This document shows, piece after piece, positions 124-2,339 of a stretch of DNA of 2,486 bases. The DNA is from Dictyostelium discoideum. Its lineage: Eukaryota. The stretch spans positions 1 to 2,486 of the forward strand of contig CH709176.1 of assembly GCA_000004695.1 (NCBI GenBank). The letters are read 5' to 3'. The notes under the pieces were generated by a model. That model was not told the DNA's origin. It was given only the letters and a program-made list of their open reading frames with translations, and did no database searches. Numbering within the stretch: the first letter of the stretch is position 1; each line of letters begins with the position of its first letter. Position numbers and translations under genes: made by a program.

Positions 124-147
124 ACACAGCGAAGAAAAAACCACCTT
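124..147 (+). repeat. Direct repeat R, copy 1 (ACACAGCGAAGAAAAAACCACCTT)
   Basis: 24/24 identity with 2435-2458. Relatively GC-containing for this window, so chance recurrence is very unlikely. The 3' end (CCACCTTTAAA) is itself a member of the NNCCTTTAAAAT motif family. Confidence 0.85.
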
Positions 148-167
148 TAAATTCGCTTTAAATTAAA

Positions 168-185
168 TTTAAATTTGCTTTAAAG
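168..185 (+). repeat. TTTAAATTTGCTTTAAAG motif, copy 1 (+ orientation)
   Basis: 18/18 identical to 835-852. The 13-mer core AAATTTGCTTTAA also occurs reverse-complemented at 726-738 and 2457-2469. Confidence 0.8.
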
Positions 186-199
186 TCCTGAATTAAAGC

Positions 200-271
200 A
201 ATTTTAAAGGTAATTTTAAAGGTAATTTTTAAGGTTACTTTAAAATTACCTTTAAAATTACCTTTAAAATT
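200..271. repeat. 72-bp near-perfect palindrome made of 12-bp tandem units (ATTTTAAAGGTA x2-3 on the left arm, TACCTTTAAAAT x3-4 on the right arm)
   Basis: Arms 200-224 and 247-271 are exact reverse complements (25 bp). The 22-bp spacer 225-246 is itself symmetric except for 3 central pairs. The right arm continues with a further 11-mer variant to about 285. Both arms are flanked by GTCCTGA (185-191 and 309-315) in direct orientation. Confidence 0.9.
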
Positions 272-293
272 ACCTTTAAATTACCTTTTTAAT

Positions 294-337
294 CGCTTTA
301 AAAGCGAGGTCCTGAGTTAGAAGCCGTTAATTAACGG
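294..337. promoter_or_regulatory. Cluster of two short GC-anchored palindromes: CGCTTTAAAAGCG (294-306, near-palindrome) and CCGTTAATTAACGG (324-337, perfect 14-bp palindrome)
   Basis: Seen directly. CCGTTAA|TTAACGG is a perfect dyad. This is a rare GC-containing symmetric site in an AT desert, immediately next to the large palindrome. Its function is unknown. Confidence 0.5.
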
Positions 338-550: not shown

Positions 551-615
551 AAATTTAAATTCACTTTAAATCTACTTTAAATCTACTTTAAATCTACTTT
601 AAATCCTATTTAAAA
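551..615 (+). repeat. 11-bp tandem array, about 5 copies of TC(T/A)ACTTTAAA, ending in the variant TCCTATTTAAAA
   Basis: Seen directly: tcactttaaa tctactttaaa tctactttaaa tctactttaaa tcctatttaaaa. The period is 11 bp. Confidence 0.9.
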
Positions 616-621
616 TTAATT

Positions 622-662
622 TAAAATAAATTTTAAAGGTATTTTTAAATATCTTAAAAATT
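622..662 (+). repeat. ~105-bp-spaced direct repeat, copy 1 (AAATTTTAAAGG(T/A)ATTTTTAAATATCTTAAAAATTA)
   Basis: 628-662 matches 733-767 with one mismatch (t640 vs a745). Copy 2 lacks one 12-mer unit further downstream. Confidence 0.75.
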
Positions 663-722
663 ATCTTAAAAATTACCTTTAAAATCACCTTTAAAATCAC
701 CTTTAAAATTGCTTAAAAATTT
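651..722 (+). repeat. 12-bp tandem array, 6 units: ATCTTAAAAATT x2, ACCTTTAAAATC x2, ACCTTTAAAATT, GCTTAAAAATTT
   Basis: Seen directly. The ACCTTTAAAAT units are the same 12-mer family as the right arm of the palindrome at 247-285. Confidence 0.9.
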
Positions 723-834: not shown

Positions 835-852
835 TTTAAATTTGCTTTAAAG
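835..852 (+). repeat. TTTAAATTTGCTTTAAAG motif, copy 2 (+ orientation)
   Basis: Exact 18-mer match to 168-185. Confidence 0.8.
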
Positions 853-991
853 GTGCATTTTTCTTTGCTGTGTAATTTTTATTTAGTATATTGTTGATTA
901 ATTTCTCTGCCACTTGGTTGGAACGAAAAATTCGAAATGGATTGGATTGGAACAAATTGAAACAAATTGAAACAAGTTTAATTTAATGTTT

Positions 992-1053: not shown

Positions 1054-1110
1054 CCATTGGGACCTATCATTGGATAATTAAATTAAATATAATTAAATCA
1101 GCAAATTTTA

Positions 1111-1128
1111 AAAAAGATCGAGTTATCC
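1111..1128 (+). repeat. Left arm of an 18-bp perfect inverted repeat (AAAAAGATCGAGTTATCC)
   Basis: Exact reverse complement of 1531-1548 (GGATAACTCGATCTTTTT). The arms are about 400 bp apart. Confidence 0.85.
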
Positions 1129-2290: not shown

Positions 2291-2339
2291 AAATTTTAGG
2301 GACCTGATAAAATTTTATCTTTTACAAATATTTTAATCA

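Follow-up and report, generated by a model that had tools for sequence, protein, structure and literature searches.

A palindrome at the orientation flip of a repeat module within a 750-nt non-coding block, a possible foldback or MITE-like element

Introduction

Foldback elements, represented by FB of Drosophila, TU of sea urchin and elements of plants and nematodes, carry inverted ends composed of short tandem repeats whose unit changes inward, with a varying number of repeats and a non-coding central loop, and terminal inverted repeats (TIRs) built of tandem repeats occur. Subterminal repeats are the transposase-binding sites in the En/Spm, Ac and P elements, and the terminus of En/Spm reads CACTACAAGAAAA. 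A MITE family is defined by a high copy number and a clear target-site duplication, and hairpin RNAs derived from MITEs are known. Phased short repeats in two orientations together with an extrudable AT-rich dyad are also features of many replication origins.

In the present study, we analysed a window of 2486 nt, the term being used for the whole stretch of DNA, which has a G+C content of 20% and a longest ORF of 49 aa. A first-pass annotation had drawn attention to a palindrome at 200–271, and this palindrome was found to lie in a 750-nt non-coding block (124–873) bounded by an inverted 22-nt terminus, ACACAGCGAAGAAAAAACCACC. The anatomy of the block is closest to that of the foldback-type elements. 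Long inverted ends made of short tandem repeats are present in both, the unit changes inward in both (here from 11-mers to 12-mers), and a conserved outermost terminus, a variable repeat number, a non-coding central loop and a strong hairpin potential are likewise shared. However, the repeat units of FB and of the block have no sequence in common, and each arm of the block contains an internal head-to-head flip. Furthermore, Drosophila FB has a 9-bp target duplication, whereas the 9-bp flanks of the block differ from one another.

The terminus of the block, CACAGCGAAGAAAAAA, starts with CAC and contains AAGAAAA, loosely recalling the end of En/Spm, a member of the CACTA/En-Spm elements (CMC supergroup). 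The 11–12-nt motif of the block occurs in both orientations, head-to-head pairs included, within approximately 180–330 nt of the ends, as do the subterminal 12-bp TnpA-binding repeats of CACTA/En-Spm. In contrast, the CACTA termini read CACTA/G and the terminus of the block reads CACAG, the 3-bp flanks of the block, GTA (left) and TAA (right), differ and so form no 3-bp target duplication, and the block contains no transposase. The resemblance may nevertheless provide a lead. On the features compared, membership of the Drosophila-type FB or the CACTA family fails, as the terminus is CACAG instead of CACTA and neither the 3-bp nor the 9-bp flanks match. The block also resembles MITEs in being 750 nt long, AT-rich and non-coding, in having TIRs and in folding well, with TA flanks possible.

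Results

The left terminus, ACACAGCGAAGAAAAAACCACC, occupies 124–145 on the plus strand, and the right terminus (852–873, minus strand) is identical to it at 19/22 positions, with 3 mismatches. A third terminus copy, at 2435–2486 on the plus strand (22-mer at 2435–2456), lies 1.56 kb from the block and is 22/22 identical to the left terminus, with an unrelated upstream flank. The 22-mer was thus detected at three sites (124 +, 873 − and 2435 +), compared to 0.00 expected from shuffles. When the three copies were aligned, similarity continued inward and stopped exactly at the outer edge, ending sharply also at the left terminus, and the outer flanks were unrelated. The block is a small, non-coding sequence of 750 nt in a window whose longest ORF is 49 aa, and its terminal inverted repeats have a sharp boundary to unrelated flanks (19/22 and 22/22 copies). 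The third terminus is followed by 11-mers of the right-end type in fewer units, and this copy runs off the end of the window. The unit number of the 11-mers consequently varies between the third copy and the block, as expected for a family with repeat-built ends. Because the flanks of the copies at 124 and 2435 are unrelated, a circular contig and a 2311-nt tandem unit were both rejected as explanations of the third copy.

The segment GCTTTAAATTAAATTTAAATTTGCTTTAAAG beside the left terminus (154–186) recurs inverted beside the third terminus (2454–2486), with 97% identity over 33 nt, which suggests inversions between palindromic GCTTTAAAG units.

A comparison of the left and right flanks of the block revealed no matching 3-, 8- or 9-bp sequences. 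TA is found at 123–124 if the left end is taken as CACAG and at 873–874 if the right end is taken as CTGTG, making TA/TA the sole candidate for a target duplication, which is weak in DNA of 80% A+T; CA precedes the third copy. In the minimum-free-energy fold of 118–880, the termini were paired (z = −11.7), and the inverted arms 120–304 and 701–877, built of 11–12-nt units, exhibited approximately 72% identity over approximately 185 nt.

Within the block (120–880) lie 35 of the 48 TTTAAA cores of the window, spaced at 11 or 12 nt, and the resulting arrays fill 146–303 and 543–851 with continuous 11–12-nt phasing around a non-repetitive core. The arrays are organized in three homologous modules, M1, M2 and M3, each consisting in the same order of four to five 11-mers (TTTAAATnnnn), 12-mers of the AAAGGTA type, an orientation flip and 12-mers of the TACCTTTAAAAT type. 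M1 (146–304, plus strand) abuts the left terminus, and its outer array (146–191, plus strand) is made of 11-nt units on TTTAAA and ends in a GTCCTGA at 185–191. M2 (554–722, plus strand) is a direct copy of M1, with 11-mers, AAAGGTA-type 12-mers, the flip and (T/C)ACCTTTAAAAT 12-mers, and M3 (852–700, minus strand) is a copy of M1 in inverted orientation, lying directly against the right terminus and with its dyad centre at approximately 750–757. When the three modules were aligned, mean column identity was 78% and the flip fell in the identical aligned column. The palindrome under study is the orientation flip of M1 and is no stand-alone site, the short-repeat module to which it belongs being present in three related copies. 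The distance from dyad centre to terminus is 112–118 nt for M1 (from 124) and 117–123 nt for M3 (from 873).

The first-pass annotation had described the palindrome as an iterated-site architecture in head-to-head orientation whose 12-mer also builds a second array at 675–710. Allowing up to one mismatch, TACCTTTAAAAT had 11 matches in the window compared to 0.32 expected, all confined to 201–778 and thus inside the block, including those at 630–641, 735–746 and 767–778 and the second array itself, which was seen at 674–709. These matches support the description.

Direct similarity between 146–303 and 554–719 amounted to 77%, as strong as the inverted similarity, and further dyads are centred near 188, 606–618, 651, 704 and 750–757. 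M2 has no intact terminus, so that the block may be composite. Upstream of M2, at 505–553, TTAAAAACCTTAAATTTATG is similar to the inner terminus sequence GAAAAAACCACCTTTAAATTCGC but lacks the outer ACACAGCG; this segment may represent a truncated third end, and the block would then be composite.

A non-mobile, minisatellite-like TTTAAA array that grew by slippage, with local inversions or fold-back replication errors, and in which the 22-mers reflect local duplication instead of transposon ends, was considered for these data and appears rather unlikely. The uninterrupted phasing over 146–303 and 543–851, the equal strength of the direct and inverted similarities and the number of further dyads all agree with it, and, TTTAAA being a palindrome, a long dyad would arise from any inversion inside the array. 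However, slippage leaves unexplained a complex, GC-containing 22-mer that occurs in three copies with sharp edges and unrelated flanks, one of them 1.56 kb off, and it equally leaves unexplained why an ordered module of 11-mers, 12-mers, flip and 12-mers has been kept three times.

In the palindrome itself, the arm 200–224 (AATTTTAAAGGTAATTTTAAAGGTA) is the exact reverse complement of 247–271, as the first-pass annotation had stated and a direct pairing check bore out, and 33/36 pairs are complementary over 200–271. The spacer had been described as symmetric save for three central pairs. Three exceptions were indeed found, at 230/241 (T.T), 234/237 (G.A) and 235/236 (T.T), but only the latter two are central, together forming a 4-nt loop (234–237), whereas 230/241 is an internal mismatch 5 bp further out. 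Because the arms are 12-mer arrays, the dyad also has an alternative register centred on 241.5, with 47-nt arms (195–241 and 242–288) and 87% complementarity. The M1 dyad as a whole constitutes the inner part of M1, in which (ATTTTAAAGGTA)2–3 faces (TACCTTTAAAAT)3–4; this imperfect dyad spans approximately 192–299 around the near-perfect core at 200–271 and has one additional 12-mer in its right arm.

Although the sister modules diverge from M1 by approximately 22%, the two 25-nt arms of M1 match without exception. By a rough estimate, arms that had each drifted by approximately 11% would stay perfect with a probability of approximately 0.79^25, or about 0.003, which points to recent homogenization of the arms. 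We favour such homogenization over selection, though the two are not separable here. The routes could be slippage among adjacent 12-mers, or intrastrand hairpin-templated repair or inverted duplication.

Folded as single-stranded DNA, 185–315 yielded −37.4 kcal/mol, compared to −11.7 ± 2.3 kcal/mol for 200 dinucleotide shuffles (z = −11.4), and folded as RNA it yielded −45.6 kcal/mol (z = −8.9). In a sliding scan of 100 nt, the M1 dyad was the top hairpin of the window (−33.1), followed by a runner-up at −20.5, with a median of −8.0. The palindrome had been proposed to be a strong hairpin or cruciform former, and the folds in both DNA and RNA form agree with this, the hairpin being the strongest in the window. 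The stability of the RNA fold also raises the question of whether the palindrome is transcribed as a precursor of hairpin RNA or small RNA, derived from an element, a reading compatible with that of a transposon. In Dictyostelium, the repetitive element thug-S yields miRNA-like small RNAs, which serves for the block as an analogy only (PMC4894637, PMC6161686). Sub-threshold matches to Rfam miRNA precursors were obtained, namely mir-3938 (42.4 bits; gathering score 94), mir-548 (36.9 bits; 90) and mir-556 (29.2 bits; 84), and these reflect the hairpin shape. However, every one of these scores is far below the gathering score, and the stem of the palindrome is repetitive and 83% A+T, so that we regard a hairpin-RNA source as very unlikely.

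The heptamer GTCCTGA occurs at two sites in the window, 185–191 and 309–315, compared to 0.04 expected, and, allowing a single mismatch and a single indel, the repeat extends to approximately 16 nt, GTCCTGA[A/G]TTA[-/G]AAGC. A 15-nt palindrome, TCGCTTTAAAAGCGA, at 293–307 adjoins the right copy. The first-pass annotation had read the pair as bracketing the palindrome in the manner of a target-site duplication or an integrated cassette. The pair is real, but GTCCTGA is absent on both strands from the sister dyads of M2 and M3, and the left copy is aligned to TTTAAATCCTA of M2, an ordinary 11-mer unit of the array. Nor does the stretch enclosed by the GTCCTGA pair possess separate termini. GTCCTGA was thus rejected as a target-site duplication or as the borders of a cassette.

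The core of the block (305–542) is non-repetitive and GC-richer and is a candidate foldback loop. It contains a perfect 14-nt palindrome, CCGTTAATTAACGG, at 324–337, just past the right GTCCTGA, and a degenerate tRNA-like sequence at 379–449 on the minus strand, with an A-box-like TGGTGTAATGG and a B-box-like GGATCGAATCC followed by T runs. Against the Rfam tRNA model RF00005, this sequence scored 14.8 bits, below the gathering score of 29, and ARAGORN called it at relaxed or mitochondrial settings only, the default finding nothing; a true tRNA gene was therefore rejected, and the sequence is best treated as a putative decayed, tRNA-derived one. Its position between the arrays, together with its A- and B-box-like motifs, recalls the tRNA-gene arrays of Entamoeba, in which short tandem repeats lie beside the genes; the sequence would then be a gene or pseudogene of the pol III (tRNA) type. 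Such an arrangement is nevertheless highly improbable here, given the low score, the negative result of ARAGORN at default settings and the unrelated flanks at 124 and 2435, by which the window does not represent a tandem unit.

Searches of the whole window with blastn returned no plasmid match and, among phages, a poly-A match only. In viral contigs, no exact match was obtained to the terminus, to the double 12-mer, to the tRNA-like core or to the core palindrome. A degenerate pattern of the terminus, searched across 185,579 genomes of prokaryotes and 241 million metagenome records, gave 31 matches, all ascribed to chance, as they lay in unrelated contexts, some apparently coding, and none beside TTTAAA arrays. 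No exact match to ten ORFs of the window was found in a collection of 15 billion proteins, and neither the 63-aa open frame of the core nor a 1181-aa concatenate of the higher-complexity six-frame translations matched the protein collection. Distinctive sequence strings of the window were not found in the relevant literature.

A scan for five TTTAAA cores phased at 12 nt picked out 33 viral contigs, AT-rich and unrelated, among them many giant-virus MAGs. Homology to these arrays was rejected because they are plain tandem repeats with other spacers. Since phased arrays occur in so many unrelated viral contigs, tandem arrays of TTTAAA 12-mers are per se generic simple sequence of AT-rich DNA, and what is specific to the block is the ordered module and the bounding termini. 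Both the comparable arrays in viral contigs and the lack of a dispersed copy in the viral, prokaryotic-genome and metagenome scans count in favour of the minisatellite-like array discussed above.

Outside the block, the window contains a run of A21 that leads into 41 nt of T-rich sequence interrupted by two C's (992–1053), A24 at 1690–1713 and, among 1780–1818 and 946–975, a (TTA)13 microsatellite as well as ATTGAAACAA in three copies. Such a composition, with its homopolymers and microsatellite, is characteristic of the intergenic DNA of AT-rich eukaryotes. The host genome appears very AT-rich and is probably eukaryotic. Judged by eye, its composition may be that of a dictyostelid, and the thug-S and DDT-S elements of Dictyostelium were considered as a possible lead.

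A second, unrelated inverted pair, 1055–1128 (+) and 1531–1602 (−), bounds approximately 545 nt of non-coding DNA. Its termini read CCATTGGGACCT... and CAATGGACCT..., with the core TTTT[A/G]AAAAAGATCGAGTTATCC conserved at 23/24 positions, and no target duplication was seen at the pair. It may be another small TIR element; the window thus carries other TIR-bounded non-coding blocks, which we counted in favour of a mobile element. A 17-mer of this pair had 4 matches, taken as chance by number alone. The hexamer GGACCT occurs at 4 sites compared to 0.21 expected, at 307–312 (−), 1060–1065 (+), 1591–1596 (−) and 2300–2305 (+). Two of them form the ends of the inverted pair just described, and the other two, one of which overlaps the right GTCCTGA, have no further similarity.

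Among the classes offered by the first-pass annotation were an origin or iteron set and a centromere or partition site, which might belong to a plasmid, virus or organelle. The block does contain phased short repeats in both directions and an extrudable AT-rich dyad, and phased short repeats, some of them head-to-head, are also found in iteron origins and parS-type partition sites. However, such sites lie on a plasmid or viral replicon next to a Rep initiator gene or ParA/ParB partition genes, whereas no gene of this kind adjoins the block, which has no plasmid, phage or viral match and a eukaryotic-looking context; inverted termini delimit its arrays and are seen again at another place in the window, and the A21T41 and A24 runs resemble eukaryotic intergenic DNA. 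With no replication or partition gene and no ORF of more than 49 aa in the 2.5-kb window, this class was not borne out, and we consider it extremely unlikely.

Discussion

The explanation that we prefer, though at about even confidence, is that the palindrome belongs to the subterminal arrays of repeats in a DNA transposon of the foldback or MITE-like type, non-autonomous and situated at approximately 124–873. Arrays at transposon ends were one of the three classes offered by the first-pass annotation and the only one to fit the context, the arrays being subterminal in a block bounded by the 22-nt terminus and a third terminus having unrelated flanks. Three termini with unrelated flanks, three modules, symmetric dyad distances, a 12-mer confined to the block and the lack of any ORF of more than 49 aa count for a mobile element. 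Counting against it are the lack of a further copy in the prokaryotic-genome, metagenome, viral, plasmid and phage collections, TA/TA as the only duplication candidate, direct similarity equal to the inverted similarity, the terminus of M2 that is not intact, the lack of a known transposase partner, the protein searches that matched nothing and the generic character of TTTAAA-based 12-nt arrays in AT-rich DNA.

Considering these results, we propose the following scenario. The block would be, or would have been, mobile, and the palindrome would mark the point at which the orientation flips within a subterminal repeat module of this small, non-coding element. From the outside inward, the element would consist of the 22-nt inverted terminus, 11-nt and then 12-nt units on the palindromic TTTAAA, a head-to-head junction lying approximately 115 nt inside either end, and a unique core that contains the putative tRNA-like remnant. 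By analogy with the subterminal repeats of known transposons, the phased 11–12-mers may be putative binding sites for a transposase supplied in trans, and the head-to-head junction may be part of the candidate transposase-binding array.

An extended form of this scenario, which we regard as unlikely, would assign the block to a foldback transposon family that has not been recorded before, in an AT-rich protist, the block being the first of its members to be seen. The phased TTTAAA 11–12-mers and the symmetric head-to-head junctions approximately 115 nt from the ends would make up a specific protein-binding array that organizes synapsis, and the tRNA-like core would give pol III transcription or targeting like that of a tRNA gene. 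The element family may already be catalogued, if the source genome is well annotated.

As it stands, the block is a well-structured, ordinary repeat element and is neither origin nor centromere nor integrated cassette. If it is mobile, it would bring a further family to the non-autonomous elements that have repeat-built ends and form hairpins, here in a compact, AT-rich genome. Elements of this kind cause assembly breaks, inversions and small-RNA production, and the phased subterminal motifs would be convenient handles with which to find the cognate transposase.
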